This document shows positions 1,003 to 40,870 of a stretch of 55,946 bases of DNA, one piece after another. Source of the stretch: Candidatus Iainarchaeum sp. (GTDB lineage Archaea; Iainarchaeota; Iainarchaeia; Iainarchaeales; JAZDDZ01); contig JAZDDZ010000003.1 of assembly GCA_043809245.1 (NCBI GenBank), positions 1 to 55,946 of the forward strand, read 5' to 3'. A program made the position numbers and the translations under genes. The notes below the pieces were generated by a model that was given only the letters and a program-made list of their open reading frames with translations, searched no databases and was not told the DNA's origin. Position 1 is the first letter of the stretch. The number at the start of each line of letters is the position of its first letter.

Positions 1003-1899
1003 ATGGCTGGAACGCTTGAAGCATTGGGGGAGATTTTTGGAAACCTGTTAAAGGCAAAAATGTGGCTTGTGGCAATTGCCTCTTTTGCAGTATCCATTGG
1101 CATGATTATAGTTGCAGTAGTGGTTGCTATTCTAGCCGCGATTTTTGCCGTTTTATTCGCTTCAATGGGCGCAAGTGGAATTGTACTGCTGCTTTTGATG
1201 CTCTTTGCACTAGGAATCATAGGGCTCGCGGCCGTTCTCATTGTTGCGGGAATAATAAACGGAATGTATGTCAAGGCGGCTGAAGGGCTTTTCAACAAAA
1301 AAGATTACAAGCTGGAGGAAATGTTCAACGCCGCGAAAGCCAAGTGGAAAAGGCTCGCACTTATCATTCTGGTTGAAGGAATAATTGTCGGGCTTATTGC
1401 GCTTATCACGCTTGCACCCGCAATAATAAGCTTTGCAAGTGCGTTCGGCGCACTAATCAATGACCCAGGCGCATTGTTGCAGTTAACTGCAATGAGCGGC
1501 GAAACCGACCCCTCGGCATCCATCTCGTTTTTTATGGCATTTTTCGGGGAATCCCTCTCATTGCTTTTCATTGGAATCGCGTTAATGTCTTTGGTGAATT
1601 TCCTGATTTCGCCTTTCCTCGTTCTATTCCTCCCGCTTGTTATGCTTGAAAATAACGGAGTAATCGCGTCAATCCAGAGGGCATTTGACCTAGGGGCAAA
1701 AAACTATTTGCCTAACCTGCTGATTCTTTTGCCCGTTGCAATTTTTTCTCTTGCAATCGGCGCAATTTCATTCCTTGTCAGCTTTTTTTCCGGGATAGGG
1801 TTCATTGCATCAATGGTTTTTTCATTCATCACGGAAATAGTAAGCTTTTCCGCTGCAACAAAAATTTATCTGCTGAACTCAAAGACGATGGGAAAATGA
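1003..1899 (+). CDS. Polytopic membrane protein of unknown function
   Basis: 298 aa with about 6-7 hydrophobic segments; overlaps the next gene at ATGA. Confidence 0.75.
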   Translation: MAGTLEALGEIFGNLLKAKMWLVAIASFAVSIGMIIVAVVVAILAAIFAVLFASMGASGIVLLLLMLFALGIIGLAAVLIVAGIINGMYVKAAEGLFNKKDYKLEEMFNAAKAKWKRLALIILVEGIIVGLIALITLAPAIISFASAFGALINDPGALLQLTAMSGETDPSASISFFMAFFGESLSLLFIGIALMSLVNFLISPFLVLFLPLVMLENNGVIASIQRAFDLGAKNYLPNLLILLPVAIFSLAIGAISFLVSFFSGIGFIASMVFSFITEIVSFSAATKIYLLNSKTMGK

Positions 1900-2441
1900 G
1901 CGGGCAGGAAAAAAAAGAAAGAAAAAGCACAGGGGGCTTTTCACGGAAAGAAGCCTTGCAGGCAGGAAAATTCATTCTCGGCATAGCGGTTTTCTTTGCA
2001 GCAATAACTTTTTTTCTCTCGCTTTTTCCCATTGAATGGTTTGAGTTTTTTTTCGCGCAGGCAAGCGCTTGGGCTTTAGGCTTTTTTGGAATCCCGACAG
2101 CGGTTAACGCGGCGCGCGAGCCGGTGCTGATGATGGTGCAGGGCATTCCCTTGCCCATTGCAATCTCCTACCTCTGCACCGGCCTGCTTGAAGCAACTGT
2201 TTTGGTTTCAGCGATTGCGGCTTCATTCGGAATTGAAACAAGGAAAAGATTGAAGGGAATTGCGGGCGCGGTTGCTGTTTCAATTGCATTCAATTTTCTC
2301 CGCATAGTCGCGAGCATTCTTGCAATCGCTTTCCTTGGATTGGAGGCAGGGGATTTGGCGCACAACATTCTTTTCCGCTTCACGCTGTTCATTGTAATTG
2401 CGGGCTATTACTGGGTTTGGATTAAAAAAAGCGAAAAATAG
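1896..2441 (+). CDS. Archaeosortase/exosortase family transpeptidase
   Basis: Multi-TM protein with the Cys-Arg-His triad context: YLCTGL (Cys), FNFLRI (Arg), DLAHNIL (His), ending YYWVW plus a basic tail. Confidence 0.85.
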   Translation: MSGQEKKERKSTGGFSRKEALQAGKFILGIAVFFAAITFFLSLFPIEWFEFFFAQASAWALGFFGIPTAVNAAREPVLMMVQGIPLPIAISYLCTGLLEATVLVSAIAASFGIETRKRLKGIAGAVAVSIAFNFLRIVASILAIAFLGLEAGDLAHNILFRFTLFIVIAGYYWVWIKKSEK

Positions 2442-6000: not shown

Positions 6001-9000
6001 TGACCCGGGCACAGTAAAACTTGAATTGAAGGCAGAGGGATTCAAGCCGCTTTCAAGGGAAATATCGGTAACTAAAGGAGGCGTCCTGCAATTGCCGCAG
6101 GAAATAAGGATTCTAATTCCAAAGGCAGACAAGAGCGCGCTGAAAAGCATTGAGCTTGTCAACACCTCGGATGAATTGATTCAGGATGTAACAGTTGAAC
6201 TGCAGAAAAAGGCAAACTTTCCGCAGGAAATGCTTGTAAACCCCTTGCCTCCCGCAATGATTGAAAGGAATTCAACGCTTGACATGGAGATTGACGCGGA
6301 GTACACGGGAAAAAAGGAAAGCGCACACGCGGAAGCCACAATGATTGTAAGGGGAAGGGTTTTGGGAAAATACTCGGTGAGCGCTGAAACAAAATTAATT
6401 CTGGACTATAATCCCGCGCTTGACTCAGGCTGCCTTGAATTCAGCAAAGGGGCGTTAAGCGCGCTTATTTTGGATGAGCAGAGCTCAAGCCAGGAAATTT
6501 CTTTCACGGCAAAAAACAACTGCGAACTGGATTTGGTGTTAAAGCCAGAGGTTGTTGCATCAGGAACAAAAGACGACAACATAAAAGTGGATGTCGGGGA
6601 AATAAGGCTTGGCGCTGCGGGCAGTGAGGGAAGCACGCAGGAAGTCATTGTAAGCGTTGTCAACCTGATTAACAGGAATATGCCGCAGAAAAAAACCGTT
6701 AAGTACGATTTGTTCTTCAAATCCGATTCGCTTACAAAATCAGTTCCACTGGAAGTCATGGTCTGGAACAGGCTGTTTGCATTGGAAATGACGCGCAACA
6801 TAGAGCTTTGGATTGCTGACACAGGAACAGGGCAGGCGGCTGCAGCCCAGTTGCCGTTATTCATCAGGAATTCAGGCGAGGCTGACGTGGAGAACATTTC
6901 CTTTTCAGTTTCCGCGGCTTACTCCGCTGGAACAACGCAGGTCACAGTGGTTTCGCCGAACAGCACGACAACCGACATTCCCTTGCTGAAGAAAGGGGAA
7001 ACAGTTGTTCCGCCAAGGTTTGTCTTTGCAAAGGCACTGCAGACAGAGAAAAGCACGATTGCTGATGTTTCGCAGATTGAGGTCAGGGGAACAATCAATG
7101 GAAAGCAATATGATTTCGGGCCGATAACTGTTACAACGCACATAAGCAGCCCGAAATGTGTTTTGGTCACGCCAACGAACATTGAATTCATAAGCGCGAA
7201 AACCTCTTTCGGCCAGTTAAGCCAAGGCATCCGCGTGAAAAACAATTGCACGGAAGAAGTCAGGGTTGCTGACATTAACCCAAAGGTTTTCGGCTCAAAT
7301 GTTTTGATGCTTTTGCCTTTCGGTGCAACAGTTTCCCCTGGAAGGGAATTGCCATTGCAGTTAGTGCTAACGAAAAGAGAGGACTGGCAGGCACAGCAAC
7401 CCCTTTACCTGAATCTTTTCCTTGTGAGAAGCAACCAGTGGCTTGTGTCACAGCCAATCCAGATGAATCTGCAGCTTGGGGAAAAAGGCATTGGCGACAA
7501 AAAGGCATCCTACCAGGAGGAACTGCCTGTTTGCTCCGATAATGGAAGCAAGGAGAAAAAACTTGTAAGCTTTCCGCGCATTGCCACTGGAGCGGGCTGC
7601 AGTGACGCTTACTGTGACGCGGAGCAATTGGCTGAATTCCTTTCGGATAAAATAGACGCAAAGGTAAAGGACGCGAAAAACACGGTGGGAAGGTATAACG
7701 GGGAAATACTTAACACGCCCTGTGACAAGGAATCAATTTACGGCGGTTTCTGCTCATTTGACCAGCTTGGCGTCAAAACCGAGACGTTTTTCGTTTACTT
7801 CATGAACGACAATTTGAGCGCGGATATGATGGAAAGCGTGCTTGACAAGAAAAGCTCGCTTGGAAGCTACCGCGTTGACTTCATTGGAAGCGGCTCAAAC
7901 ATTGCAAACGCGGGAAGCCTTTTAGGGGGATACGGCGGCCAGATTCTTTTCACAGCGCCATTCCAGGGCTGCGGAAGATACACTGTGAAAATAAACGGCG
8001 CGGTAAAAGTGCAGGGAAACGCGTTAATTCCGGACATAATGAACGTGCTTGTTGAAGTCACTGGCGATGAAACAGGGGCAAGGGAAATCACGGAGCAATG
8101 CGAAAACAAAATCCAGAACGTGAACAATTTTTTGCCAATAGACAAAAGCTATTCCTCCGCGAATTCAAATGATTCGTGGCTTGCAATGGTTTCAGCGGAC
8201 GAGGAGTCACTGCAGCCATTGGGCCAAACTGTTGCGAAAAGCCTTTTCGGAAAAGACGACAGGTTTTCTTCAATGGCTTCACAGCGCACTAACACACTTA
8301 ACCTCATTTTAGGCAGCGAGGAAAATTATCTGGTCAAATTGGAAATGGAAAGGGAAGGCGGAGCAGAGCCGAAAACAATCAACGCCTACATAAAGGAATC
8401 GGTTGGAACTGAAACCGCGGATGGGACTGCGAAGATTCAGGATGCGATTGCGAAAGAGGCTGCAACAGCAATCGCGCAGATAAAGTCAGGGCAGATTGAC
8501 GGCTGCATTTCAGCTGACGACGATTATTTGCTGATAAAGTCCACTTCAAAGGTTGCAAAAATTGCGCTCACTGGCTGCGCGCAAGGCCATTTGCCGGTTG
8601 TTTTCGGCGAGCCAAGCTGCTGTGACTTCAATGTTTCAAGCGAATTAAAGGAAAGGGTGTCGGTTGAAGCACTGTTAAAGGACACAAGGCAAGGCACCGG
8701 AGAGCCGTGGATTCAGACAAAGGCAGGGGAGAAAACCGATGAAGTGGAATTAACTCTCGCAGAGGATGAAAAAAGCTTTAACGCTGAATTAAAGTTATGC
8801 ATTGAAGGCGAACAGGACTTGCAGTTAGCGCAGGGCAAAAAAGTCCAGCTGAAAGCCAAATCAGCTGCCGACGGGGGAAGGAAAGCGGAAGAAAAAGAAG
8901 TGGAAATGCAGGTATGCGGCATACACCCCTACAGCCTGCTGGAGCAATTGAATGAAAAAGCAAAGGCATTTGATTCGGCAAAGCCAAAGGATTACTATGC

Positions 9001-11504: not shown

Positions 11505-11584
11505 AGGAATTGTACGAAATCAAAGATTAGGCAGACTGCGTTAACTATATTAATTTCCTTTCCCTTTAATTTAGCGTGCTGAAA

Positions 11585-12784
11585 ATGAACCGCAAGGGTT
11601 TCACGCTTTTCACTGCGCTTGTCTCATTCGTGCTGATTGTTTTGGCCGCAATACTTGTGCAGGCAATGGTTGCATCAGAGGGAAACACTGTTGACATACT
11701 TGCGGATGTGTCCGAGCAGCAGGAAATGCAGGCAATAGCAGACCTTGCGAGGGCTGATGCGCTGCACCTTTTCAATTTTGGAATGCGTTACTCGATAGAG
11801 GAATGGCTCACGGATGACAAGGAGCCAAAGGATGATGTGCCGGACAACTCATATCTCTTGGACCCGGGCAACATGTCCTGGAACGGCATAGTGGATGACT
11901 TTGCTTCAAGCAATTTTGGGGGAAGTGGAAGCGAGAACATAAAGTTCGCGCAAAGGACCGCGATTCATTTGCAAAGCATTCTTTCAACCGCGCCTGATGT
12001 CAGGGGATACCGCGTGGACTTGCTGACTGCGCCGCAGCAGAAAAACAGCAGCCTTGCACTGCAGGAATCACTTACCGATGCAACAATAGCAAGCACTGAT
12101 GCCGGGGACTTTTTCAAGGTCATTCAATGCGACAGCGGGGAATTCCGGAACTGCCAGGGAACCTTTTACGTGAACCTTAACCTCAAATACCTTACTGACG
12201 AGAAGTTCGAGGTTTTCCCGCAGATACAGGTAAGCAAGCCCACAACAATGAGGGCCTTAAGGGAGGCAGTGCTTCCCCGCGAGAATTTCCAAATGTTCGT
12301 GCCATTGCGCGTATTCAAGGCGCTTGCAGGCGGAAGGCAGATGGCCGTGGAAGCAGGAGGAATTAAGGGGCTTTACAGCGGGCCATTCAAGCAAGAGCTG
12401 AACGAAATTGAAAAGCAATTGGACCCTTCGGGAAGCAACTGCAACGAAAACTCGGGCAAGGCAAATGAAATGGGCAACACGCTTAAGGCGAGCGCTGCAG
12501 CGCTAATAGAGGAAAGGGGCGACGAGTTAGCGCAGGCAATTGGCGCGCTTGACTCTGGCTCTGATTTCCACATTGCCGAAGATTTTACAGGGCATGTGCT
12601 GAAAAAAATCAATGTTCTGATTGACAAGCCTGAAAAAGATGAAGGCGGAAAACACCTGTACTGTGTGGAGCTCTCGAGCTTTGAAGCTTACGCGGTTTTC
12701 GTTGAAGAGAACCCGAATTACATGGTGATAGACAAAACCGATGGCCAGATGTACGGCGTGAGGTTCAGGCAAAGCCTTAACTGA
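11585..12784 (+). CDS. Large prepilin-type (class III signal peptide) protein
   Basis: MNRKG/FTLFTALVSFVLIVLAAILVQAM: a GFTL prepilin cleavage motif lacking Glu+5, followed by a soluble domain of about 370 aa with Cys pairs. Confidence 0.75.
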   Translation: MNRKGFTLFTALVSFVLIVLAAILVQAMVASEGNTVDILADVSEQQEMQAIADLARADALHLFNFGMRYSIEEWLTDDKEPKDDVPDNSYLLDPGNMSWNGIVDDFASSNFGGSGSENIKFAQRTAIHLQSILSTAPDVRGYRVDLLTAPQQKNSSLALQESLTDATIASTDAGDFFKVIQCDSGEFRNCQGTFYVNLNLKYLTDEKFEVFPQIQVSKPTTMRALREAVLPRENFQMFVPLRVFKALAGGRQMAVEAGGIKGLYSGPFKQELNEIEKQLDPSGSNCNENSGKANEMGNTLKASAAALIEERGDELAQAIGALDSGSDFHIAEDFTGHVLKKINVLIDKPEKDEGGKHLYCVELSSFEAYAVFVEENPNYMVIDKTDGQMYGVRFRQSLN

Positions 12785-24100: not shown

Positions 24101-27100
24101 TTCCTCTACAAAACTGGAATTAGAGGATGCAACTGTCAGGATAAAGGACAGGTTCGGCAACACAATAGTGTTTGACCAAACAGGAAAAGACGGATTGGCG
24201 TTCTTAACGCTGCCTGCACAGGTTCCGGGAACAGAGCTGACTTTAGAGGTTTCAAAGCCAGAGTATAACACGAAAACAGTGAAGCTAAGCATTGAGGCAG
24301 GCATACTTGAATTCAACCCAGACAGTTTAGGGGTTTCATTGAATGTTAAAACAAAAATTGAGGCGGATTCAAAGCTTTCAATTTCAAACAAAACTTTCTT
24401 CCCGGTAACAATTGACTCAGTCAGGCTGACCGGTGACTTCCAGAACTTATTGGATGAAACAGCAATTGATAACTGGCTTGAGGCAAGCTATAATGGAACA
24501 AGGATTGACGCGGGCAAAAGCAAGGAAATCATTTTGAAGACTTATTTAAGCGATGACGGCAAAGCGTTAGAGGAAAGGAAAAGCCTTGAAGGCGACCTGT
24601 ACTTTGTTGCATCAAATTTCGGCGAGCACTGGTTCTTCACAGTGCCAGTAACGATTTCCATTGGCTTGGGCGGAGAAGTTGATGACCCCACGTGCCTGCA
24701 GTTAACGAAAGCGGAGTGGACTGCTTCCACGGAAGGAAAAGCCATTGAAACAGAATTCATGATCCAAAACAACTGCACCGTGGGCCAACAGCCTGTTGCA
24801 TTGAAAAACCTTGAGGCAAAAGTAAACCAGCAGGGAAACCAGTTAGGCGAATACACTTTAACCATTGGCTCAACCACTTCAACGCTGAGAAGCGGTTTCT
24901 TCAAAAAACTTTTAGGCAACCTTGATGCAGGGGAAAGCGTTTCCGCGATTTTAAGCTTTACGCCGTTCGGCGGAGTGCAGGGAACAGATGAATCTGAGTT
25001 GCTTATTCAGGCAACAAACCCGGTTGAATCAAAGCCGGAAGTATTGGCTGCAAAGCCCTCGCTTAAGGCAACAATAAGCGTTGTAAGCATCCTTGAATGC
25101 GTTTCCTTTGACCGAACATACCTTGAAATGGAAAAACAAGGCAACGCTGCATTCACCATTACAACAAAGGGCTGCGGTGCACCAGTTGACTTTTCACTTG
25201 AATCTCCGTTAAAGGTTTCCTCAAAGGAATTCACTTTGCCTGGAGACGGAAGCCAGGCAATACAGGTTTTCTCACAGGACAATTATGCTGGGCAGTACGG
25301 AATCAAAGTGAAAGCCACTGGCGCCTCATTCAAACAGGAAGGCTTGTTGAAAAACATCCGCGCGCTAATCAAGCCGGCTCCAACAGATTGCCTTGAATTA
25401 AACCGCTATGAGTTTGACTTGCTTGACTTGGAGAACGATGCCTTTGACGGCTATGACACTGCAATGCTGTTAAACAAATGCTATGACAAAAGAGTTGAAA
25501 TAACCGTGAACATGCGCGACTGGGGCGACGCATTAGGCGACGCAATCCTGCCGGCAGTCCTCACACTCGGATTAAACATTGCAGGCAACATGCTCACAGG
25601 AAAAACCTGGAGCGGCGCGGAGAAAGGCGCGGCAGCAGCTGCAGCGGGAAAAGCCGCGGTTGCAGGCGGATATTCTGCTCCAACCCCAAGCAATGCAAAC
25701 AACAAAGCGCCAACAGTAAATGCAGGCGCAACTTCTTATAGCGGTAAAGCCGGCGAAGCAATAAGTATACTTGGCACGGCAAATGATGATACAAAAATAA
25801 CTGGAATAAACTGGACTTCAAGCGATTGCACAATTGGAACACAATCACGCGGCGGCGTAAACTCGCCAAACGCATCAGACAGCACGCAAATAACCTGCAA
25901 TAAGGCCGGCAACTTTACAGCAACCTTAACCGCTGTTGACAATGACGGTAGTTCGGTTTCAGCAAACGCGCAAATAACAGTTGCTGCCGCAGGCAGCGGA
26001 ACAACGCCTGCAGGGGAATTCACTGCAAACGCAGGCGGAACAAACGGGACATACCAGATAACGCACGGTGGAACCATTGTACTAACTGGCACTGCAACCG
26101 ACAATTCAGGCGGCAAAATAACAAAAATCGAATGGACGGAAAACAGCACTGACTGCAGCTTTACAGATACAACAGATATTTCAAACCTGAATACAAAGGA
26201 AGCGACTGCAAGAATATCAATAACGTGCACCGGAAACTTTGGAACCCAGTATGCAACGCTTTCAGTCACAAACAGCAAAGGAGAAACACAAAGAGTCACT
26301 GCAACAATAAATGTTGTTGCTGGAAGTAGCGCAAATACTGCTACAGAAACATGCAACGATTATGACAAAACTCCAATTAAAACCTGCTCTAAACAAAAAC
26401 CATTATACTGTACTTCCGCAAAAGAGATTACTAATAATTGTTTAGCCTGTGGTTGTGATGTTGGGACTTGTAATGAACAAACACTATTATGCGAATTAGG
26501 CGAATTAGCAGCTATCCCCTCTCACTCACCAACAGCCCTCGCTTCTCTTTTTGATTTTGGAGGCGGTTCAGGCGGAGTGCTGGGAATGGCCACTTCAATG
26601 ATGTCTTCTTTTACTGGAACTGCGAACCCGATTTTGAATGCTGGGGCGGTTCTTGTGGGCGCAACGCTGATTAATTATTATGGCGAGGATGAGGCAAAGC
26701 CTTTCACTGTGATTAAGCCAAACCTTGGAATAAATAATTCGGGCATTGTTTTATGGGCTGGGGAGACAGCTGAGGGTGGAACGGTTGACGGGGACGTGAA
26801 AGTTGCAGTGCAGGGCGAACCCGAATACAGGGGAAGCCCGACTGATGTTGCATTGAAATGGGAGACGAGAACGCTTATTTTCACAAATGAAACGCAGTTC
26901 ACTACAATGGAAGACAGCCCGTTGTACAAAATATTGGATGTGAAGGGAAGCCAGGAGAATTACGATAAGGGAACGTACTCGAAAGACGAGATAATAAGCG
27001 GTGACAGGCTGAATGAAGGAAAGGTAAAGAAAACAAAAGCGGATGCATTTGAGCAGAAATTCCACTTGGAGTTCAACGCTGTGCCCCCAGAAGGCCCTTC

Positions 27101-29090: not shown

Positions 29091-32000
29091 ATGGGCCTGA
29101 AGGACTTTTACTACTCACTGGAAGACAAGTACTATGCCTTGCTTGACAAGATTGACTCGCATCTCCCGGTGTACAAAGTCGTTGACCCGATTGACAAGGT
29201 TGTTCCATCCTTTGCATTGGCGCTTGTTGTAATCGCCCTAATTGTTGCATTGCTTGCCTTTTCTTTAGGCGGCTTTAACCCCTTGGCGCAGGAAAAAACA
29301 ACCCTTACAATCACTGTAATTGACGATGCCGGCGTGCCACTGAAAAACGTTGAATTGACAATAAGCGGGCTTGAGGCCACAATAAAGGATTCAACTAATT
29401 CAAAGGGGCAAAAGGTTTTGGCTGACATTGAAATGGGAAAAACGCTTACAATAACTTTAAAGAAAGCAAATTACGGGGACGCAACGGAAAGCGTGACTGT
29501 CACGGAAAAAAACCAGGAGAAAACAATCACTTTAACGGCAACCGCGTTGCCTTCAACCACAAGGTTCGTTGAATTCCGCGGGCCGGACGGAAAAAAGCTC
29601 TCGGGGAAAACGCTTACCGCTGAATTCAGCTGCTCCAGCGGAACACCAATTGAAAACGCTTTGAGGACAATTACAAGCGGTGAAACAACTGTTGTTGTGC
29701 CGGGAGACTGCGGCAATCTTGTTGCAAGGGTCAGCGGGACAGGCTTCAAAACAAATTCTTTCACATTAAACCAGGGCGGAGTCATAAGCCTTGAAGCGGA
29801 AAACATCCCAAAGGGAACAGTGCTTTTCAGGGTGAAAGACATTGAAACCAAGAGGGCCTTGTCAGGCATTAACTTAAAGGTTTATTCTTTGAACAACCAG
29901 TTGAAGGCTGAGAAAACCACTTCTTTCGGCGAAGCCGTTTTCTCGCTGGAAGCAGGTGATTACTATGTTGTCGCGGAAGACCCGAACGAGGATTACGCGA
30001 GCGAGACAAAAAACTTTGAGGTCAGTGAAAATGATTCCAAAAGCGAGGAAATTCTTTTAGGCAAGGAAATAAAGGCATACATAAAGGTTTTCGTGAAAGA
30101 CAAGGCAAACAATGCAATAATTCCGAATGCAACTGTTTTTTTGAAAAAAGATGACGGAAGCCTTTACGGGCAGAAGGCAACGGATGAAAATGAGGGAAAA
30201 GCCACATTCACTGTAAGCGAGAACGGAATCTATTACATTGAGGCAGCGCACGACTCATACCTTTACTCCGACGCAAACAAAATCGACACAAGAAGCGTTT
30301 CAGTTGGCGCGACAATCACCGCAACGGTAAAGCTGGAGAAATTAACCGCTGCAAACAGCGGAAGGCTCAATGTAACTGTTGTTGACGAGGACAACTGGCC
30401 GGTGGAGAATGCCACGGTTAACTTATTTGATGCGAACAGCGGTTTCCTGTGCAGCGGCTGCGGGCAAAAAACCACGGATGTAAACGGAGTAGCGAAATTC
30501 TCGGGCATTAAGAAAGGAAAGTATTACGCTTTGGCTTACAAGTATCCCGCACAGGGAACAAGCGACGCAAAAGACATTGACAACCGCATTGAAAACGAGT
30601 TGACTGTAAACCTGATTATCGGTAACGGCACTATTCAGGTTAAAGCAGTTGACTTGGATAACAAGGCGATTCCGTTCGCAACCGCTGAACTTAGGACTGA
30701 GACAGGGGAAGCGCTTGGCGCGATTTCATTGGATGCACAGGGAATTGGCTCAAAAACGCTTAAGGCAGACAAAAAAGTTTACGTGAAGGTTTCAGCTGAC
30801 GGATACAGCAGCTGGACAAGCGCTTCAAGGCAAATCATGCCAAACAAAACAGTTACGGTTACCGCAAAGTTAGAGGAAGAGATTTTAGGCGACAAGCCAA
30901 CAGTGGAGTTTTTGGGTTTGTATTCAACGGGAAGCGTTTCCTCGCAAATGCAGCAGCTGAATTCAGGGGAAGAGGTTACTGCAAGGTTTTTGCTGAAAGT
31001 GCCGAGCGAAACAAGTTTCAGCGAAATAGGATTGCATGTGAGGGCCGGGGCTGATGAAACAAAAACAGTGCAAAAAGACCAGTTGTTCATAAACGGAGTT
31101 AATGCGCCTTATGCTTCATCACTGAAAAGCACAACGTACAACGCTTCAAATGGCACTGCAATTGACGAGGAAAACATCACAAATGGAGACGCAAAATGGG
31201 TGAACATCTGGTGGCACTCTGATTCAGGCATTGAGCCGGGAGTTTACAATTTGGAGATACAGTTAAAGGTCAAAAATAATACAACACAGGGATACGAGTT
31301 GCCGCTGCATTACCGCGCATGGGGAGTGGATTCAGGGGAAGCCTATCTCCGCGACCCAATTGACACTGCATTGGGCACTGCCTCGGATTCAGGGGCAAAA
31401 GAAGCGCTTTACGCGCAAACATACGACAAAACTTATTACGAGGGAATTCCCGATGTGTGCAGCGAGGACTTCTGCTATTCGGAAAGAGTCATTGACGGAA
31501 GGGAAGGCTCGATTCTCTCCGACGCGCCGTATCCAATCAGAATGTTTGACGACTACAATGTTGTTTTTGCAATAACGAATAATTCAGGAACACTGCACGA
31601 CAACGCAAACATAAGAGTGAAAAGCACAACCGATGGAATAAAAACTGATGACGTGGTTAGCATCAAGCAGTACTCTTTGGTGAACGCGGACAGCTCGAAT
31701 TTTTCAAGTTCCGCGCCAAAATTTGAAATTGACCCAATTGATTTGGGTTACTTTGCAACCAATAAAACGATAATGGGCAGCATGGTTGTTCAGGCAAAAA
31801 AAGAAGAGCAAAGCAGCGTTCAGTTAACTGTTGTCTCAAGCCAGAACACGGTTTTTGAAAAAATTATTGACTTTCAGCCATACAGCGAACAGGACATTAA
31901 CGTGACGGTTTTGCCTGACGTGCTGGCCTCAATGATTGCCTTGGAGTTAAAGGTTCACGCTGAATACGAGGGCGGAGAAAAAGACGGCTTTCCCTTAAGG

Positions 32001-35000
32001 GATGCAATTGTAAGGGTTACACGTACAGCGCCTGACTTAAGCCAGACAACAATGAACGGGGCAACTGACGCACAGGGAAACGCGGTTTTCAGCATTCCCG
32101 CTTCATCAAACGGCACAAAAATAAAGGTGGAAGTTGAAAAGCCGGGTTATGGAAGCAAGGCAATTGAAAAAACAGTGGGGGAGGGAATAATAAAATTTAA
32201 TCCCAATGAAATGAAGTTCTCCCTTAATTTAACAAACAGGCAGGAAAAAGAATCAAATCTCACAATAACAAACCTTATCCCCCCTGAGCTAACAATTTCA
32301 AAGTTGAAGGTAACGGGAAGGTTTTATGGTTTGCTTGACGAGGAAAGAATGAACAACTATCTCCAGCAATTCATTGGCTTGGACTTGAATAAAAGCCACA
32401 GTGAAACAATAAAGGTGCTTGCTGCGCTAAGCGACAACGCACAACTATTGGATGAAAGCACAATCGTGAAGGGAAACCTGATAGTTAATGCAACCGATGA
32501 AACACAGGGAAGCACCTGGAGCTTTAATGTGCCATTGGAAGTAGACATTGGCTTGGCGGAAATGTGCAAATACAATGACCCCATTTCAATTTCAGTAAAG
32601 GAATGGAAGGGCTCAACGCTTGACAACAAGATAATGAAGGAATTCCTCATCACAAACAACTGCGTTAACGACGATGATGAAGTGATGAACGTTGCAAACC
32701 TGAAGGCGCGCATAAAATGGAGGTCAGACGCAATAGGAAACGTTGAACTGACAATCAACGACCCCTCGGGCGGAAGCTATTCACAGGTACTGCAGGAAAC
32801 AATCTGGGCAAGATACTTCAATGAAGTTGAGGGAGGAAAACAGTATGTTGCAATTGCAACCTTCACGCCAAACCCGGGGCATTTGGGTGAAACAGCTGCA
32901 TTTGACATAGAAATTGACGCGGAGCTATTGACTGACAGGGGAAGGCAGGATGTCGGCGCAACAAATGCAATCCAAGCCGAACTTTTAGTGATTAACTTGG
33001 AGCAATGCATTAAGTATTCGCCGCAGCCACAGGAAGGAATTAAAATTAGCAGAAGCGAAAAGGAAACAAGTTTTGAGTTAGACACAAGCGAGTGCGGTGA
33101 CATTGCGCTTGACTTCAAGTTCTGCGACAACGACAATTGCAGGGGAGGCACAAGCGAGGGCGGAATTTACTTGAGGCCCACGACTTTAAGCAATGTAATG
33201 CCCGATGACCCTAAAACAGTCACGGTTGAAAGGGGTGACATTCCCGGCTTTTACGGAATACCAGTCTCTGTTAGGCCTCCTGGGGGAAGCTTCAGGCAAG
33301 TGGCTGAAATGGAGGCAATAATTGAACCACAGACAGGCAAATACTTCACCTTAGACCGCTATGACTTCACAATAATCGGCAAAGGCTCCAAGGATTCAAC
33401 CACGCTGAACAACCAAATGCTGCAGGAACCAGTTGCGGTTACGGCAGACATGTGCGCGTGGGGAGACGCGACAAGCAATTCAAACTTTGGGTTGGCTGTT
33501 GGGGCAGGGGCGGCGACAGCCACTCTTACCGCATTTACTTCAGTTGGGGCTGCCTCTGCAGTCAGTTTTTCAATAGGAATTGGCGGGTTTAATGGATTAG
33601 TACTCGCTGGTTCTTGGTGCCCTCCGTGTATAATAGCAGGAATCGCAGTAATGATTGCAGTCATGCTTTTCATGGGTGACGACTGCCATGACTCGCATCA
33701 AACCAACACTTTAACCGATTACGTGATTTACTTGGTTGGTTCCGGCACTGACCGCACTGGCGACAGGTTTTTGCCTGCAGACGCGCAAAGCATTATCCTT
33801 GACAACGAGAAAATAAAGGCTTCATGGAACCTTGAGGCAAGGGATATTTACGCAGGGCAGGGAGCGAACGGAACAGAAGAGGTAGGCGTTGTCTTCGAAA
33901 ACCTTGGGTTAGAGGAACAGCAGCCGACTTATTCAATCGGAACGATTCAGGCAAAAGAGCACGTGCACGGCGATGTGGCTCACGCTGGAAACGCAAAAGT
34001 TGACTGCGGAAACGGCAACTTCGGCAATTACTGGATTGGCGCAAGCGGCAACCAGGGAAGCTGCAAGGGCGCAAACGACACAACGCACTCGCAGAAATTC
34101 CATTTGCGGTTCAAGACAAGCGACATAAACGAATCCCTGCCCGCGATTCCGTTTGATGCATACGCGTGCAGCTCAGGCACGGAATTCGGATTGGCTGGAG
34201 TTGGAGCGCTGCCGAAAATAAAATTTAACTGGAACTGGGACGAGGACACTGGAGGAATAGCCTACAATGGCTGCGACCAGGGAAACGACAAGGCGATTTA
34301 CTGTGATGCAACACAGTTCAGCATTGAATTAAACAAGCGCCTGATAAACCTTGAGGAATTCTTCAGGGGAAACAACTATGACTTCACCTGCCCAGCGAAA
34401 AACGATGGAAGCGCTGCAACAGAAGAATACAACAATGAAAACTCCACTCATAACGTCGGCATTGGCTCGCTTGGATTAAGCAAAATAGAGTCAAGTTTGG
34501 TTGACAACACTGCAACGGTAAAGGTAACAGTGAAGAACGGCACAGGCGCAGACCAGAACGCATACTTTAAGGTTACATTGAACGGGACAAATGTTGCACA
34601 ACAGTCATGTGACAAAGAAGTGCTTAACTTAGCAGCAGGGGCAACAGGTTCAGGCGAATGCGTTTTCACTGGCTTAAGCGAGGCAACCTATGCAGTGGTT
34701 GCACAGATTTCAAGCGCTTCAACTTCCTCAATTGACTCAAGCACGGTTTCAAGCACATTCCTTGTAGGCGACCCCCTTGGCTTAGGGGGAGTGGAAGTAG
34801 GCGGATGCTGGGCTCCACGCACAACTGAAACGCTTTACGGAGAGCCAATGATAAAGAGGTTCATTGAAGCGGATTCAAGCATACACTGGACTGCGGCAAT
34901 CAACAACCCGCAGGCATTATATGACACCTTGAAATTCAACGCATACCTCATAAAAGACGGCTACACTGATGACTTCCAGAACGATTTCGTGAAATACTAC

Positions 35001-36191
35001 ACAGAACAGCAGTTCGCTGACACTGATGCAAGGTTCACGGGTTACGGGTTTGACAAATACTTTGAATCCGACAATCTTTTCTTCACGCAGAAATACGTGG
35101 AAAGCCCACAGCTGCCTGCAGCAGGAGTATACGAGGTGGAGATTGCGGCTTACTTTGGCGACAACTGGCGCTTTGTCAAGGAAAACGGAGAGTTGGCTGC
35201 AGGAATTGGCGTTGTGTTTTACCGCTTGGATGACCCAACTCCAAACAGCCCGTTTTATTCAATGCCGTTTGACGGATTGGTTGGATACGAGAACGGAGCA
35301 TACAACAGGCAGGGATACGGAGTGAGTTATAATAATGCTTCAACAGAGGAAATGCTGCAAATAAACAGGGCGGCAACCCCTGTGAAAAGCTATGATGACA
35401 CTGGAAGCAATGCAGTGCTCTCAATTGATTCAGCGATTGAAAGGGACTTCTATGAATTGAATACCTCTCCAGACAGCAGGGGAGCAGTGCTAATAGTGGA
35501 CAAAACAAAGGGCAATGCTGCAAAGCTAACGCTGCAGCCTGCTTATGCAACGCCTGTAATGCTGAAATTGAACCATGGCCTGGACACAGAGCCATTCGGC
35601 GCATTTTATATTGCAACTGAAACAGATGTTCCAGTGGACACGGGAAGCGTTCTGGCTTACTGGAGCGGGGCTGGAAGCTGCCTGGATTTCAGCGGAGTTC
35701 CTGTAACGGAAATTTTCACAGGAAAACCCGACAGGCAGGCGACAACAGCTGACAGGGGCGTAACCAATTGGATGGCTGCATTTGGAGTTGGATGGGAGAA
35801 AGCCGATTACGCTGGAGACGTTTATTTGAGGACAATCTTCTACACTAACCCGAAAAAACAGAGCACATTGAAGGTGGAATCGCCCTTAAGGGGCCTCTCT
35901 TTTTACACCCCTGACCAGAGCGGTTCAGGAGTTTCATTGAACGGAATAAGCTCCATGCCTTACAACAGGCCTGGCGCCGGCTCTGCTGATTCAATTGGCA
36001 CAATGGAGGATGTCTTTGGTTTGGTCGAAAATGGCCAGATGTGCGTAACCAATTCAGGCAACAAGACAAAGTTCTGGTGGAACCCGCAGACAATCTATTT
36101 GCAGCAGGGAACCGCGAGAAGCATACACGAAATGACAATGTCCTTGGTCGGCGGCGTAAACTGCATTGGCTATGACTCAGAGCACAACTGA
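29091..36191 (+). CDS. Giant surface protein D (2366 aa) with Ig-like repeats and an internal hydrophobic hairpin
   Basis: Leader MGLKDFYYSLEDKYYALLDKIDSHLPVYKVVDPIDKVVPSF plus TM; GDAKWVN, CSEDFC, YCDATQFSIE, PFDGLVG, FWWNP. Confidence 0.9.
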   Translation: MGLKDFYYSLEDKYYALLDKIDSHLPVYKVVDPIDKVVPSFALALVVIALIVALLAFSLGGFNPLAQEKTTLTITVIDDAGVPLKNVELTISGLEATIKDSTNSKGQKVLADIEMGKTLTITLKKANYGDATESVTVTEKNQEKTITLTATALPSTTRFVEFRGPDGKKLSGKTLTAEFSCSSGTPIENALRTITSGETTVVVPGDCGNLVARVSGTGFKTNSFTLNQGGVISLEAENIPKGTVLFRVKDIETKRALSGINLKVYSLNNQLKAEKTTSFGEAVFSLEAGDYYVVAEDPNEDYASETKNFEVSENDSKSEEILLGKEIKAYIKVFVKDKANNAIIPNATVFLKKDDGSLYGQKATDENEGKATFTVSENGIYYIEAAHDSYLYSDANKIDTRSVSVGATITATVKLEKLTAANSGRLNVTVVDEDNWPVENATVNLFDANSGFLCSGCGQKTTDVNGVAKFSGIKKGKYYALAYKYPAQGTSDAKDIDNRIENELTVNLIIGNGTIQVKAVDLDNKAIPFATAELRTETGEALGAISLDAQGIGSKTLKADKKVYVKVSADGYSSWTSASRQIMPNKTVTVTAKLEEEILGDKPTVEFLGLYSTGSVSSQMQQLNSGEEVTARFLLKVPSETSFSEIGLHVRAGADETKTVQKDQLFINGVNAPYASSLKSTTYNASNGTAIDEENITNGDAKWVNIWWHSDSGIEPGVYNLEIQLKVKNNTTQGYELPLHYRAWGVDSGEAYLRDPIDTALGTASDSGAKEALYAQTYDKTYYEGIPDVCSEDFCYSERVIDGREGSILSDAPYPIRMFDDYNVVFAITNNSGTLHDNANIRVKSTTDGIKTDDVVSIKQYSLVNADSSNFSSSAPKFEIDPIDLGYFATNKTIMGSMVVQAKKEEQSSVQLTVVSSQNTVFEKIIDFQPYSEQDINVTVLPDVLASMIALELKVHAEYEGGEKDGFPLRDAIVRVTRTAPDLSQTTMNGATDAQGNAVFSIPASSNGTKIKVEVEKPGYGSKAIEKTVGEGIIKFNPNEMKFSLNLTNRQEKESNLTITNLIPPELTISKLKVTGRFYGLLDEERMNNYLQQFIGLDLNKSHSETIKVLAALSDNAQLLDESTIVKGNLIVNATDETQGSTWSFNVPLEVDIGLAEMCKYNDPISISVKEWKGSTLDNKIMKEFLITNNCVNDDDEVMNVANLKARIKWRSDAIGNVELTINDPSGGSYSQVLQETIWARYFNEVEGGKQYVAIATFTPNPGHLGETAAFDIEIDAELLTDRGRQDVGATNAIQAELLVINLEQCIKYSPQPQEGIKISRSEKETSFELDTSECGDIALDFKFCDNDNCRGGTSEGGIYLRPTTLSNVMPDDPKTVTVERGDIPGFYGIPVSVRPPGGSFRQVAEMEAIIEPQTGKYFTLDRYDFTIIGKGSKDSTTLNNQMLQEPVAVTADMCAWGDATSNSNFGLAVGAGAATATLTAFTSVGAASAVSFSIGIGGFNGLVLAGSWCPPCIIAGIAVMIAVMLFMGDDCHDSHQTNTLTDYVIYLVGSGTDRTGDRFLPADAQSIILDNEKIKASWNLEARDIYAGQGANGTEEVGVVFENLGLEEQQPTYSIGTIQAKEHVHGDVAHAGNAKVDCGNGNFGNYWIGASGNQGSCKGANDTTHSQKFHLRFKTSDINESLPAIPFDAYACSSGTEFGLAGVGALPKIKFNWNWDEDTGGIAYNGCDQGNDKAIYCDATQFSIELNKRLINLEEFFRGNNYDFTCPAKNDGSAATEEYNNENSTHNVGIGSLGLSKIESSLVDNTATVKVTVKNGTGADQNAYFKVTLNGTNVAQQSCDKEVLNLAAGATGSGECVFTGLSEATYAVVAQISSASTSSIDSSTVSSTFLVGDPLGLGGVEVGGCWAPRTTETLYGEPMIKRFIEADSSIHWTAAINNPQALYDTLKFNAYLIKDGYTDDFQNDFVKYYTEQQFADTDARFTGYGFDKYFESDNLFFTQKYVESPQLPAAGVYEVEIAAYFGDNWRFVKENGELAAGIGVVFYRLDDPTPNSPFYSMPFDGLVGYENGAYNRQGYGVSYNNASTEEMLQINRAATPVKSYDDTGSNAVLSIDSAIERDFYELNTSPDSRGAVLIVDKTKGNAAKLTLQPAYATPVMLKLNHGLDTEPFGAFYIATETDVPVDTGSVLAYWSGAGSCLDFSGVPVTEIFTGKPDRQATTADRGVTNWMAAFGVGWEKADYAGDVYLRTIFYTNPKKQSTLKVESPLRGLSFYTPDQSGSGVSLNGISSMPYNRPGAGSADSIGTMEDVFGLVENGQMCVTNSGNKTKFWWNPQTIYLQQGTARSIHEMTMSLVGGVNCIGYDSEHN

Positions 36192-36236: not shown

Positions 36237-36620
36237 ATGATGTTCTTCCTTTTCAGCATAATGGAGTTCGCAGGCGACTTCAATTTAGTTCTGAAAATAC
36301 TTGTTTTGCTTACGATTGCGAATTTCTCCCTGACACACCTTGGCAAGGGGCCAATGAGCTGGATTGTAATCATCGGCTTTGCGTACTTTGTTTTGTTCAG
36401 CAATTTATGGCTCTTGTTCGGGGGAGTATACCTCCTGTACATGCTGTTGATGTTCGGCTTCGGGCATATACTGATAGACTTCTTCTTCATCAGCGCTGGC
36501 TCAGGGCCAAAGCCAGAGGAAGAAATGGAGAGCCCTGTAAGCCACGGCGTGGACCTGGCAAAAAGGCAGAACCAGCTTGCCCATGCGAGAAGCTTTGCGC
36601 AGAAGTTTGTGAAAAGGTGA
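36237..36620 (+). CDS. Small membrane protein (paralog 1 of an LG-x-G/A family)
   Basis: Hydrophobic 127 aa; THLGKGPMSWIVIIGFAYFVLF. Confidence 0.7.
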   Translation: MMFFLFSIMEFAGDFNLVLKILVLLTIANFSLTHLGKGPMSWIVIIGFAYFVLFSNLWLLFGGVYLLYMLLMFGFGHILIDFFFISAGSGPKPEEEMESPVSHGVDLAKRQNQLAHARSFAQKFVKR

Positions 36621-36628
36621 ATGGATAA

Positions 36629-36985
36629 ATGCTTTCAAGAAAGGAATTTTTAGGGGAATTCGGGTTCATTGCAATTCCGCCAATACTCCTGCTTATTCTG
36701 GCGGGAATCGTTCTCCTGTTATTGCTTCCTCCTGCAGTGCTGTACATTTTTCCGCAGGCAAAGCTTTTGTTCCAGGTGATAATGATTTTCTCGGTTTACA
36801 TGCTTGTAAGGGGCTATCTTGGCAGCGGAATGCTTACAATCATTATTACCGCGGTGCTAATCTGGTTCCTTGTGTTCAAATACCCTGAAGTTACGGCTTC
36901 ACTTTATGTTTTCTGGATGCTTGTGATGTTCGGTGGGGTCTCAGTGCTTATCTGGGGAATTGGCACTGTTTTCCGGCCGCACTAG
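36629..36985 (+). CDS. Small membrane protein (paralog 2)
   Basis: Hydrophobic 118 aa; GYLGSGMLTIIITAVLIWFLVF. Confidence 0.75.
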   Translation: MLSRKEFLGEFGFIAIPPILLLILAGIVLLLLLPPAVLYIFPQAKLLFQVIMIFSVYMLVRGYLGSGMLTIIITAVLIWFLVFKYPEVTASLYVFWMLVMFGGVSVLIWGIGTVFRPH

Positions 36986-37038
36986 CGAAAGCGCAAGCAA
37001 TGAATGGTTTAAATAATTGAATGAGCAAAGATGTGTAA

Positions 37039-37302
37039 GTGAGCGGAATGTTTTTGGCAACAATTTCAAACGATCTGGTTGCGGACCTGGAAATAGTAAT
37101 CCTCCTGTTCATTTTCATATGGTTTTTTGCATGGTCAAAGGATAAGCTGGGTTCGGCAAAGCTGGCTGTGCTTTTCGCGGTGATAGCGATTTATTTCACT
37201 TTTTTCAGGTACAGGTACCTAATATGGATTGCGGTGGGCGTGCTTATTCTCGCGACATTCGGAAAGGACTTGTTTGAGAAAGCCGTGCCGTTCAAGAGCT
37301 GA
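37039..37302 (+). CDS. Small membrane protein (paralog 3)
   Basis: Hydrophobic 87 aa (alternative ATG 37048); DKLGSAKLAVLFAVIAIYFTFF; TTTAAATA at 37008-37015. Confidence 0.7.
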   Translation: MSGMFLATISNDLVADLEIVILLFIFIWFFAWSKDKLGSAKLAVLFAVIAIYFTFFRYRYLIWIAVGVLILATFGKDLFEKAVPFKS

Positions 37303-37308
37303 TGAAAA

Positions 37309-37629
37309 ATGGATACGTTTAATTTTCTGCTGGCATTGCTGATGATGATGCTTGCAATACAGTTCGGGCAGAACTGGATTGTCGCGGGCATAGTGCTGCT
37401 GCTTATTTTGACAGGAAAATCAATTATGGATGGGGTGCTTGTGATTGTTGCCGCTGCAGCGCTTTACTTTGTCGGCGCAAGCGACCTGAACACGTTCTGG
37501 CCTTACGTTGTATTCGGCCTGATGATTCTCGCAGTGGTCATAGGGCAGTCAAACAAGCCCGAACAGCAGCCATACGACATGTTAGGCGGCCTGGGCGGCT
37601 ACGGGGGCATGGGCGAAGGAATGATGTGA
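37309..37629 (+). CDS. Small membrane protein with Gly/Met-rich C-terminal tail
   Basis: About 4 short hydrophobic segments, ending GGLGGYGGMGEGMM. Confidence 0.7.
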   Translation: MDTFNFLLALLMMMLAIQFGQNWIVAGIVLLLILTGKSIMDGVLVIVAAAALYFVGASDLNTFWPYVVFGLMILAVVIGQSNKPEQQPYDMLGGLGGYGGMGEGMM

Positions 37630-38013
37630 ATGATTTTCCTTTACTCGCTTCTCTTCTTTGCACTGGCAATAATTCTCGCATACTATAATATGGGTGCGCT
37701 TGCGGCTTTCAGCGCATTCATCGGCTTCCTGCTTCTCATTGCATCCTTCCTTTCAAAGACCACAGGGGCTGCCAAAAAAATCGGCGGTGCGTTAAAAGAG
37801 GAAGGCAAAAGGGAATGGGAGGAAATGGAAAAGGCAAAGGCAAAGCTTCCTGACAAAGGCTATATGGTGAGCGCAGTCGGCGAAGCCGCGAAAAAAGCCG
37901 GGGAGGCAACTTTCGCGAAAAAAGAGGCAAAGTACACTTCCAATAAAATCTTTGAACGGCTTGAAAAAGGCGCAAAAAACTTCATCAATGCGTTTGGGAA
38001 AATATTCAGGTGA
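37630..38013 (+). CDS. Membrane protein with two N-terminal TM helices and a basic amphipathic C-terminus
   Basis: Abuts the previous stop codon; hydrophobic for aa 1-40, then Lys/Ala/Glu-rich helices. Confidence 0.7.
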   Translation: MIFLYSLLFFALAIILAYYNMGALAAFSAFIGFLLLIASFLSKTTGAAKKIGGALKEEGKREWEEMEKAKAKLPDKGYMVSAVGEAAKKAGEATFAKKEAKYTSNKIFERLEKGAKNFINAFGKIFR

Positions 38014-39337: not shown

Positions 39338-40870
39338 ATGGAGCTTTTCAAGATAGCAAACGGCCCCTGGAGGCAGATATTCCAGGGAAGCTTTCAGGGC
39401 CACGAACTAGAGGTTTACGCAAACCCTGACAACATACTGCTTTCAATGGTGTTAGACATTGAAAAAAAGCAGATTGTAGGCACTATTTTCCAGCTGTACA
39501 AGGTTTTCTCCGCTACAGGGGAAATAGAGGGTTTTGTGGAAAGCCTTCCAAGGGAAGTGTTAGTACTTGAAAGGCATGAAAAAAACGAAACCTTGAAATT
39601 TTTGATGCTTGGAAGCAATGCGGCTTACGTGAAATTCAAGGAAAACGAATTCATCAACGAAGTGGAGGCTGCATTCAAGCGCGTTGAAATGTCCTCCACA
39701 ATGATCAAGGACATATCCAAGGCTTACGGCTTAACGCTTGATGAATTAAAGGACGCGAGCGAGAAGGCAAAAGGAAGTTTTTTCGCGCAGCCGCTGCTTA
39801 TCCCAATGCTTGGCGCTTCAACAGGCGGCGGAATACAGCCGGGGGAAACGCAGGAATCTTCCCCGGGAACATTTGCCCCTGTGGCGAAAGGAGAAGTGAT
39901 GCTTGGCTTGACAAAGGAAAAAAAGCCCGTGCTTGAGCCGTTCAACTTTTTCCAGAGGACAATAATTGCGGGAGGGGAAAACGCGCAAAGAAAGCACGCG
40001 CTTCACGTGCTAATCGAGGGAGCGCTCCTTTCAAACATCGCGGTTACATTGATTGATTTTGGCAACGAATTCCACGGGTTAAGCGAGGGCTCAAAGGAAA
40101 CAGGGGAGCTTAAAAAATACGGGATTGACATGGACCCGATTGGCTTTCCTGTAAAGCAGTTCAGGCCCGGAAAAGAGGTTTTCGTGGATTTTGAGGCAAC
40201 AGACGGAAAAGGGCTGCTTGATTTGTTCGGCGCTGGTGAAAGCGCAGCGGCAGATGCAATAGACCTTGCGATAAGGAAGGAAAAGCCAAAGGACGCAAAG
40301 GACCTGAGCCAAAAAATAAAGCTGATGCCATTGACCGATGAATTCACGGATTACCAGAAAAACAAGGCGGTAAGAATTGTGACCCTGATAACCCTGAGCT
40401 ATCCTGAGCTGTTCAAGGCAAAAAACACTTTTGACGAGATATCGAAAAGCTGGGTGAAGTCAATTGGAAGGGCGGGAATAATTAACCTGAAGGATACTGA
40501 TGCAAGGCAGGCATTGCTTATAGTGAACAATGTCGTGAACGGAGTGATTGAAAGGTTCAAGGCAACGGAGAGGACGATGAGCACCAAGGCGCTTATCGTG
40601 ATTCCGGATGCGGAAAAAATAATAGGAAGGGCAGGCAAGGAGATTCTTGCAGTGCAGACCGCAAAGGCACTGGCAGAGGGCCCGCTTTACGGAGTGGCAT
40701 TCGCTGTCAGCGCGGAAAGGGAACTGGACCTGGCGGAAGAACTGTCAAAAACAGCCGACGCCAGAATCGAGCTAATATCGGGAAACGACGCGGGAGTGCA
40801 GCTGAAAAACAAGAAGGCATACAGGGTTTTCCTCAGGCCAGCGTTAAGCAAATGCACTGAAAAAAATTAG
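39338..40870 (+). CDS. Degenerate HerA/VirB4 (DUF87/DUF853-like) ATPase homolog
   Basis: FQRTIIAGGENAQRKHALHVLIEGALLSNIAVTLIDFGNEFHGL follows the HerA-like strand, P-loop, helix, hhhD layout, but GKT is absent. The Walker B-like segment reads LIVIPDAEK. Confidence 0.65.
   Translation: MELFKIANGPWRQIFQGSFQGHELEVYANPDNILLSMVLDIEKKQIVGTIFQLYKVFSATGEIEGFVESLPREVLVLERHEKNETLKFLMLGSNAAYVKFKENEFINEVEAAFKRVEMSSTMIKDISKAYGLTLDELKDASEKAKGSFFAQPLLIPMLGASTGGGIQPGETQESSPGTFAPVAKGEVMLGLTKEKKPVLEPFNFFQRTIIAGGENAQRKHALHVLIEGALLSNIAVTLIDFGNEFHGLSEGSKETGELKKYGIDMDPIGFPVKQFRPGKEVFVDFEATDGKGLLDLFGAGESAAADAIDLAIRKEKPKDAKDLSQKIKLMPLTDEFTDYQKNKAVRIVTLITLSYPELFKAKNTFDEISKSWVKSIGRAGIINLKDTDARQALLIVNNVVNGVIERFKATERTMSTKALIVIPDAEKIIGRAGKEILAVQTAKALAEGPLYGVAFAVSAERELDLAEELSKTADARIELISGNDAGVQLKNKKAYRVFLRPALSKCTEKN

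Follow-up and report, generated by a model that had tools for sequence, protein, structure and literature searches.

The 55,946-nucleotide stretch analysed here, contig JAZDDZ010000003.1 of Candidatus Iainarchaeum sp. (assembly GCA_043809245.1) and hereafter called the window, carries on its + strand four tandem genes for giant proteins, A, B, C and D, the last of which contains a long uncharged segment flanked by two cysteines. We give roughly an even chance to the reading that this segment is a disulfide-clamped helical hairpin inserted in the archaeon's own cytoplasmic membrane, which would supply a second anchor between the stalk and the head of a type-II (N-in) giant surface protein. D was found to be organized as an N-terminal anchor, a stalk of about 1,400 residues made of immunoglobulin (Ig)-like and CarboxypepD_reg-type domains, the hydrophobic insert, and a Cys-bearing head of about 830 amino acids (aa). 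The anchor is preceded by an N-terminal tail of about 40 aa, with a similar pattern in the paralogs A-D. Pfam matches in D were confined to residues 244-1016 (CarboxypepD_reg, SpaA, Big_1 and MG-type Ig domains), and none was obtained in its last 1350 residues. The features of D on which the argument relies are the following:

29091-36191, + strand: giant D, a single open frame of 2366 aa
29211..29276, + strand: N-terminal membrane anchor of D, F41-F62, with a Kyte-Doolittle (KD) 19-residue window maximum of 3.06
33453..33455, + strand: upstream cysteine of the putative clamp, C1455, in the motif C-x-W (present in 74/99 homologs; nearly invariant column C255 of alignment A1)
33486..33611, + strand: first limb, F1466-G1507, Gly/Ala/Ser/Thr-rich and marginally hydrophobic (KD windows of about 1.5), with an AlphaFold2 predicted local distance difference test (pLDDT) below 50 (fragment residues 268-310)
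33618..33629, + strand: CPPC, C1510-C1513, at the start of the last helix and putative tip of the hairpin, following the CxxC pattern of short inserts
33630..33677, + strand: second limb, I1514-G1529, a strongly hydrophobic helix in the AlphaFold2 prediction (KD maximum of 2.39)
33684..33686, + strand: downstream cysteine of the putative clamp, C1532, in the acidic context G-D-D-C-H-D, co-varying with C1455

The sequence-only reading of this DNA had described an uncharged hydrophobic stretch between CAWGDA and DDC within an otherwise hydrophilic protein, covering 33459-33690 (approximately W1457 to H1533), and both parts of this description held. The translation of 33399-33750 reproduced exactly the string that had been quoted, with CAWGDA corresponding to C1455-A1460, the hydrophobic stretch to F1466-G1529 and DDC to D1530-C1532. 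The run without D, E, K, R or H comprised 70 residues, A1460-G1529 (nucleotides 33468-33677), consisting of 14 Ala, 11 Gly, 7 Ser, 6 Val, 6 Ile, 5 Thr, 5 Phe, 5 Leu, 3 Asn, 3 Met, 2 Cys, 2 Pro and 1 Trp. Given the charged fraction of 0.23 in D outside its two hydrophobic parts, 6e-6 runs of at least 70 residues were expected, and in 2000 shuffles of D the longest uncharged run averaged 26.7 residues and never exceeded 53. This run is real and far beyond chance, and the sole other hydrophobic segment of the protein was the N-terminal anchor (approximately F41-F62). A distance of 834 residues separates the element from the C-terminus, and 15/66 positions of the segment fitted the pattern [GAS]xxx[GAS]. 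A BLASTN search of the segment against the window revealed no second copy, that is, no template repeat for diversification. Public sequencing runs covering 32691-34490 were looked for, and neither a run nor an RNA holder was listed. A Pfam scan of D residues 1451-1537 alone retrieved 0 families at E ≤1, glycine-zipper families included, the NCBIfam scan and the ESM Atlas search of residues 1380-1800 gave no match and no usable match, respectively, and the PDB sequence search with residues 1201-1800 returned only a chance rhodanese row (E 0.75).

The observation extends from D to the whole family. In the databases, homologs of D carry the source name 'Candidatus Diapherotrites archaeon', which assigns the protein to Diapherotrites/Iainarchaeota. 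A word-indexed search with D residues 1250-1750 recovered 48 proteins, nearly all of 2150-2600 aa, and a full HMMER scan with D residues 1201-1800 recovered 302 cluster representatives at E ≤1e-3 and 109 at ≤1e-30, many of these homologs matching in two stretches that broke exactly at the segment. Flank hidden Markov models (HMMs) were built, one from the 78 residues preceding it and one from the 71 residues that follow, and when 177 proteins longer than 300 aa were scanned with these models, 168 matched at least one flank, 100 matched both and 99 were usable. Homologs presented an insert of like composition at the same alignment position as the D segment, with a length between the flanks that varied from 25 to 615 aa. 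The short inserts (66/99, up to 165 aa, median 68) had a median Gly+Ala content of 34% and were mostly hydrophobic, reaching a KD of at least 1.6 in 57/66, of at least 1.9 in 49/66 and of at least 2.4 in 29/66. The long ones (33/99, 172-615 aa, median 348) reached a KD of 1.6 in only 12/33, and presented a G-x-x-x-G-type helix at the start, a second Gly-rich hydrophobic helix at the end and an Ala/Thr/Gln-rich middle with 6-26% charged residues. Pfam detected no domain within the inserts of four long-insert homologs, the only match being a sub-threshold OEP hit in P0147.

Moreover, the sequence-only reading had proposed weighing the conservation of hydrophobicity against that of sequence, and composition proved to be kept among homologs while sequence was not. 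In the closest homolog only 23/75 insert positions were identical, with indels, versus 56% identity over the surrounding 600-residue stretch. By these comparisons the insert evolves faster than its surroundings, its site and composition being conserved and its sequence not, and the insertion site is hypervariable and fast-evolving. Among homologs, no conserved motif was found before either helix, except C-x-W and a Pro/Gly turn. On a tree of the flanks built with FastTree (98 rows, one having been dropped for its short flank, and many weak forks), weakly hydrophobic inserts were scattered within hydrophobic clades; for example, P0066, with a loop of 25 aa, was sister to P0027, with an insert of 135 aa.

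The two cysteines flanking the insert behaved as a pair. Both were present in 92/99 homologs, neither in 7/99 and one alone in 0/99, which supports the earlier suggestion that flanking cysteines could close the segment as a loop. Fisher's exact test gave a p of 7e-11 for this pairing, with the rows treated as independent though related. On the flank tree, six Cys-free rows needed 5 changes, of which well-supported branches forced at least 2, and as few changes were needed in 52/500 label shuffles, the Cys-free rows being not significantly clustered. The window's own paralog C was also devoid of both cysteines. Such paired presence and paired loss suggest that the two ends of the insert meet, and do so in an oxidising compartment, which argues for a structural disulfide C1455-C1532 closing the loop. 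The cysteines inside the short inserts may be read as a second sign of pairing, at least two being found in 30 of them, one in a single insert and none in 35.

Both flanks of the insert are probably extracellular. They were taken as such because the head of D has several invariant cysteines and because its sequon density is near that of the stalk (1.08 and 1.44 per 100 aa, respectively). Four of five cytoplasmic proteins of the window had 0-0.37 sequons per 100 aa, and the fifth, an M24 peptidase, had 1.01. From the co-variation of the flanking cysteines, their repeated double loss and the beta-sandwich nature of the flanks, which contain conserved cysteines, we infer that both ends of the insert lie on the same side of the membrane.

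An AlphaFold2 model of D residues 1201-1800 (43 homologs, mean pLDDT of 82) placed the insert between beta-sandwich domains, most of whose residues exceeded a pLDDT of 90. At C1455 a short helix began, fragment residues 268-310 had pLDDT below 50, with 33-39 in the middle of the loop, and a helix of pLDDT about 60-68 was predicted at fragment residues 311-328, corresponding to D residues 1511-1528, followed by a confident strand. In this model the loop lies outside the globular core and projects from its beta-sandwich flanks, in agreement with the projection from a beta domain that the sequence-only reading had envisaged instead of burial. No helical bundle surrounded the loop in the model, the flanks being beta-strands. 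The head (residues 1530-2366) was modelled with a mean pLDDT of 89.9. In it, Foldseek and VIA recognized an FN3/Ig-like domain at model residues 259-365 and nothing else, and the model of residues 1201-1800 likewise gave generic Ig-type hits alone. Neither a fusogen nor a toxin or enzyme fold was among these generic Ig/FN3 matches, the head having been searched as one 837-residue model and its domains not singly. The Fsx1 and HAP2 rows (Z 8.2-8.6) covered only this FN3-like domain, far from the loop. Just behind the insert, at D residues ~1620-1660 (nucleotides ~33950-34070), a His-rich motif was observed, E-H-V-H-G-D-V-A-H in D and EHIHGDPTH in the homolog consensus; this conserved motif might bind metal.

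The two limbs of the insert were unequal. Insertion free energies were estimated roughly, by summing central-position values of Hessa 2005 over 19-residue windows with no position or length terms. The best window was below 0 kcal/mol in 34/66 short inserts and at or below +1 in 43/66, almost always at the C-terminal end, with values down to -5.3 among homologs. In D, the CPPC plus the last helix gave +1.1 kcal/mol. In 16/66 short inserts a CxxC (for example WCPPC, FCPPC, WCPAC or FCPVC) marked where the strong helix begins, 14-23 residues ahead of the insert end, a distance that fits one bilayer span. By these estimates, short inserts hold one transmembrane-grade last helix, preceded by a marginal limb rich in Gly, Ala, Ser and Thr.

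A hydrophobic stretch of about 40 residues that contains a turn-former inserts as a helical hairpin, and neighbouring helices help marginal ones to enter the membrane. A comparable sequence of events might apply to D. The N-terminal anchor would start the export of the protein, and when the uncharged stretch reached the translocon the strongly hydrophobic last helix would partition into lipid, drawing in the marginal Gly/Ala-rich first limb along with it. The first limb would enter the membrane too because the clamp needs both ends on one side, and packing of the two limbs through their small residues is plausible. Both ends would remain outside, with the C1455-C1532 disulfide at the outer base of the hairpin and the CPPC at the inner end of the last helix. 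Since such an insertion site would be topologically neutral, it may lengthen, shorten or lose hydrophobicity with the folds of the flanks undisturbed, and an accessory anchor of this kind would explain the weakly hydrophobic forms scattered in hydrophobic clades.

Several observations weigh against a clamped hairpin that spans the archaeon's own membrane. The disulfide and the topology are both inferred. No VKOR homolog was found in the genome, which is 91.8% complete, in a search that did not extend to other oxidoreductases. The first limb is weak, at +3.3 kcal/mol in D, and among the 66 short inserts the second-best window never fell below 0, with 9 inserts at +2 or lower and 30 at +4 or lower. 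Under the positive-inside rule, a cytoplasmic turn is expected to be rich in Lys and Arg; the interiors of 62 short inserts (4061 residues) contained 45 K+R against 109 D+E, and 23 of the 62, including that of D, were fully devoid of charged residues. The acidic interior goes against a cytoplasmic turn, because such a turn should be basic. In some homologs, moreover, the hydrophobic part comprised only 28-34 aa or was replaced by a Trp-rich loop of 25-40 aa, and neither can span the bilayer twice. The last difficulty comes from paralog C:

25530..26711, + strand: homologous insert of paralog C, residues ~1457-1850, composed of a Gly-rich helix, PKD-type domain(s), a 9-Cys stretch and a second Gly-rich helix; both clamp cysteines absent

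The alignment of paralog C with D ran as far as residue 1457 and resumed at residue 1951, and the PKD-type domain of its insert passed the Pfam cut-off (PF22352, 29.5 bits; cut-off 27). This domain and the 9-Cys stretch would be placed at the tip of the insert. Since a PKD domain would hardly be expected in the cytoplasm, this suggests that the tip in paralog C is outside the cell and that the two limbs do not form a spanning hairpin in every member of the family. A probable second Ig-like repeat was also observed in the paralog C insert.

The sequence-only reading had gone further and proposed insertion into a second membrane, that of a host. Stated generally, the clamped loop at the stalk-head junction would insert into the membrane of a partner cell, in a way comparable to a fusion loop, a fusion peptide or a translocon hairpin, and its state in the own membrane would be at most a resting one. 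This architecture matches the D element in outline, a Cys-closed loop between beta-strands. The Gly/Ala-rich, marginally hydrophobic first limb, the acidic rather than basic interior of the hairpin and the fast evolution of the insert are in keeping with it, as are the short Trp/Phe-rich variants found at the same site in P0066, P0062 and P0064, and the hydrophobic stretches of some homologs that could not cross a bilayer twice. The CxxC at the tip (16/66) and the even Cys counts could allow the clamp to be rearranged. The PKD domain at the tip of the paralog C insert and the two pilin-like genes of the cluster, described below, can be added on this side, together with the role in cell-cell interaction that the authors of PMC5905446 suggest, in the sentence devoted to it, for the giant cluster of Ca. 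Forterrea, which is likened to the present one by description only. On the other side, contact with another cell was seen in no result here, no fusogen or pore-former fold was among the Foldseek/VIA matches, and within clades the hairpin was reduced or lost time and again. Moreover, a helix with the hydrophobicity of I1514-G1529, surpassed in some homologs (down to -5.3), should already be retained during export by the translocon of the cell itself. Iainarchaeota are also reported, in a passage of PMC10936187, to have anabolic capability sufficient for a free-living lifestyle. No result obtained here supports insertion into a host membrane; we regard it as unlikely, and the element is explained more economically, and with higher probability, as a second anchor in the own membrane.

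A variant that joins both membranes, and that seems to us improbable, is a triggerable insertion device. The clamped loop would be parked in or on the own membrane and freed when the tip CxxC attacked the clamp or when an archaeosortase-family enzyme nicked the loop, and the Gly/Ala limb would then enter the partner membrane. If this were true, the giants would be the contact or fusion machinery of a DPANN order, and it would be clear why no other part of the protein evolves as fast as the insert.

In a further reading the loop would not span the membrane at all. It would form a wedge, monotopic or re-entrant, within the outer leaflet of the own membrane, or a pair of small-residue helices that bundles with other copies or with paralogs A-C as the core of a larger surface assembly. 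An uncharged element rich in Gly occurs at a similar position in all paralog types, and the long inserts are framed by Gly-zipper-like helices of borderline hydrophobicity (12/33 at a KD of 1.6). Their middles, with 6-26% charged residues, and the PKD domain of C point to an extracellular tip, and the hydrophobic parts of 28-34 aa in some short inserts are too short for two spans. Against this, the last helix of the short class resembles a normal transmembrane helix (KD of at least 2.4 in 29/66), and the loop was of low confidence in AlphaFold2, which predicted no packing for the monomer. On balance, a non-spanning loop is also improbable.

Very improbable, in our judgement, is an internal processing or sorting signal, in which an archaeosortase-family enzyme would cut within the clamped loop and perhaps add a lipid, the two chains being held together by C1455-C1532 as in nicked toxins and viral fusion proteins. 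The candidate enzyme is encoded at the head of the giant-gene cluster:

1896..2441, + strand: exosortase/archaeosortase-family gene, TIGR04178 at 41.9 bits (cut-off 23)

The gene passes the signature cut-off, and the same arrangement, with this gene followed by A, A2, B, C and D, recurred in the genomes G014, G001 and G002. The gene directly adjoined giant A in G000, G014 and G002, and about 10 kb of other genes lay between the two in G001. In at least 14 genomes of 8 families (G000, G001, G002, G009, G010, G011, G014, G020, G031, G037, G038, G060, G064 and G122), a figure that was not systematic, many assemblies being fragmented, the gene heads the cluster, lying 29-44 kb upstream of a D-type match on the same strand. 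Known exosortase/archaeosortase signals are C-terminal and combine a short motif with a helix and a basic tail. No hydrophobic C-terminal signal was found at the end of A, A2, B, C or D, so that no substrate of the enzyme was identified in the cluster, which leaves room for an internal one. The element of D departs from the known signals in being internal and followed by acidic residues, and, apart from C-x-W and the Pro/Gly turn, the sequences ahead of its helices show no conserved motif. Furthermore, the enzyme family is not specific to giants: it was present in 150/151 sampled genomes of the phylum, including 10/11 without giants, and its co-occurrence with them is uninformative for this reason.

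Finally, burial of the segment in a globular domain and an artefact of gene calling have a negligible probability and were both rejected, given the continuous reading frame, the collinear homologs, the variation of insert length from 25 to 615 aa with composition rather than sequence conserved, and the AlphaFold2 placement of the loop outside confident beta-sandwiches.

The assembly to which the window belongs has 1.48 Mb and a completeness of 91.8%, of which the giants occupy about 30 kb. With a 600-residue query from D, giants were detected in 131/151 sampled genomes of the phylum, that is, in 131/140 of the same order and in 0/11 of other orders of the class. Besides D and the enzyme gene, the cluster spans 3023-29060, and A-D were compared by pairwise BLASTP:

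3023-11356, + strand: giant A, open reading frame (ORF) of 2777 aa
11576-12784, + strand: A2, pilin-like, between A and B, ORF of 402 aa
12905-20518, + strand: giant B, ORF of 2537 aa
21162-29060, + strand: giant C, ORF of 2632 aa

The C-terminal third of giant A (residues ~2040-2777) was unlike B-D and had no Pfam match at cut-off; it presented a moderately hydrophobic Gly-rich stretch at 2047-2066, followed by a long charged sequence and a Cys-bearing end. Giant B carried at residues 1309-1402 an uncharged low-complexity stretch of 94 aa, rich in Tyr, Gly, Asn and Pro, and similar stretches of 67-122 aa were found in the B-type proteins of G014, G001 and G002. Pilin-like N-termini were observed in two ORFs on the + strand, 11576-12784 (RKG/FTLFTALVS...) and 194-739 (KG/QEFSVFKLLIS...), which we take to resemble archaeal type-IV-pilin (class III) signals; neither ORF had a Pfam or NCBIfam match. 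Directly after D, on the same strand, five small and very hydrophobic ORFs of 87-127 aa were placed at 36237-38013, followed by an ORF of 510 aa without family match (39338-40870, + strand). Downstream of the cluster lie ordinary archaeal housekeeping genes, among them those for a family-B DNA polymerase, for HisRS and for the biosynthesis of histidine.

These giants may bear on the ways in which DPANN archaea attach to other cells or exchange material with them. A clamped hypervariable loop with a CxxC at its tip and an archaeosortase-family neighbour turns a vague 'giant adhesin' into a testable object, and even if the loop is only an anchor, it would represent an unusual two-point pinning of a surface protein longer than 2,000 residues. 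In full-text searches of the literature, supplements excluded, only PMC5905446 was found to mention such a cluster, and no account of the insert, the clamp or the enzyme synteny was found. That account is a single sentence on five large membrane-anchored proteins in Ca. Forterrea. As described there, that cluster resembles A-D in belonging to the same phylum, by the names of the homologs, and in comprising giant, membrane-anchored proteins encoded by tandem genes that account for several percent of a small genome; the sentence includes no insert, Cys clamp or archaeosortase-family neighbour, and the likeness is one of description only. Giant proteins are not mentioned in PMC8784108, where the word 'giant' occurs solely in a reference title, and the passages of PMC11329633 that describe host-made nanotubes do not mention the D family.

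Among known systems, PGF-CTERM/PEP-CTERM signals resemble the D element as hydrophobic helices of surface proteins encoded near an exosortase/archaeosortase-family gene, but the D element is internal, is followed by an acidic stretch and lacks both a basic tail and a conserved tripeptide motif. Class II/III fusogens, among them HAP2 and the archaeal Fsx1, have fusion loops that are short, hydrophobic or aromatic, placed at the tip of a beta-sandwich and braced by disulfides. The D loop is like them in emerging from a beta-sandwich with a putative disulfide, and the Trp-rich homolog variants of 25-40 aa come closest; unlike them, it has 70 aa with a full transmembrane-like helix, which is too long, and no fusogen fold was detected around it among the Foldseek/VIA matches. 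Alpha-helical pore-former hairpins of the colicin/ClyA type differ from D in the amphipathic helical bundle that shields them, absent from the AlphaFold2 model. Glycine-zipper and small-xxx-small motifs are echoed by the 15/66 [GAS]xxx[GAS] positions of D and by the G-x-x-x-G-type helices that start the long inserts, but in this family the motif positions were not conserved among homologs and no Pfam family matched at E ≤1.

The helical-hairpin anchors of polytopic membrane proteins consist of two helices joined by a tight turn, in which marginal helices are helped by their neighbours. The hairpin proposed for D differs from them in standing between large extracellular beta-domains, in being closed by a disulfide, in lacking a basic turn and in its hypervariable length. 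It would share with them an uncharged run, 45-70 residues long, a turn made by Pro/Gly or CPxC, two ends on one side of the membrane, and the combination of one strong helix with one weak helix.

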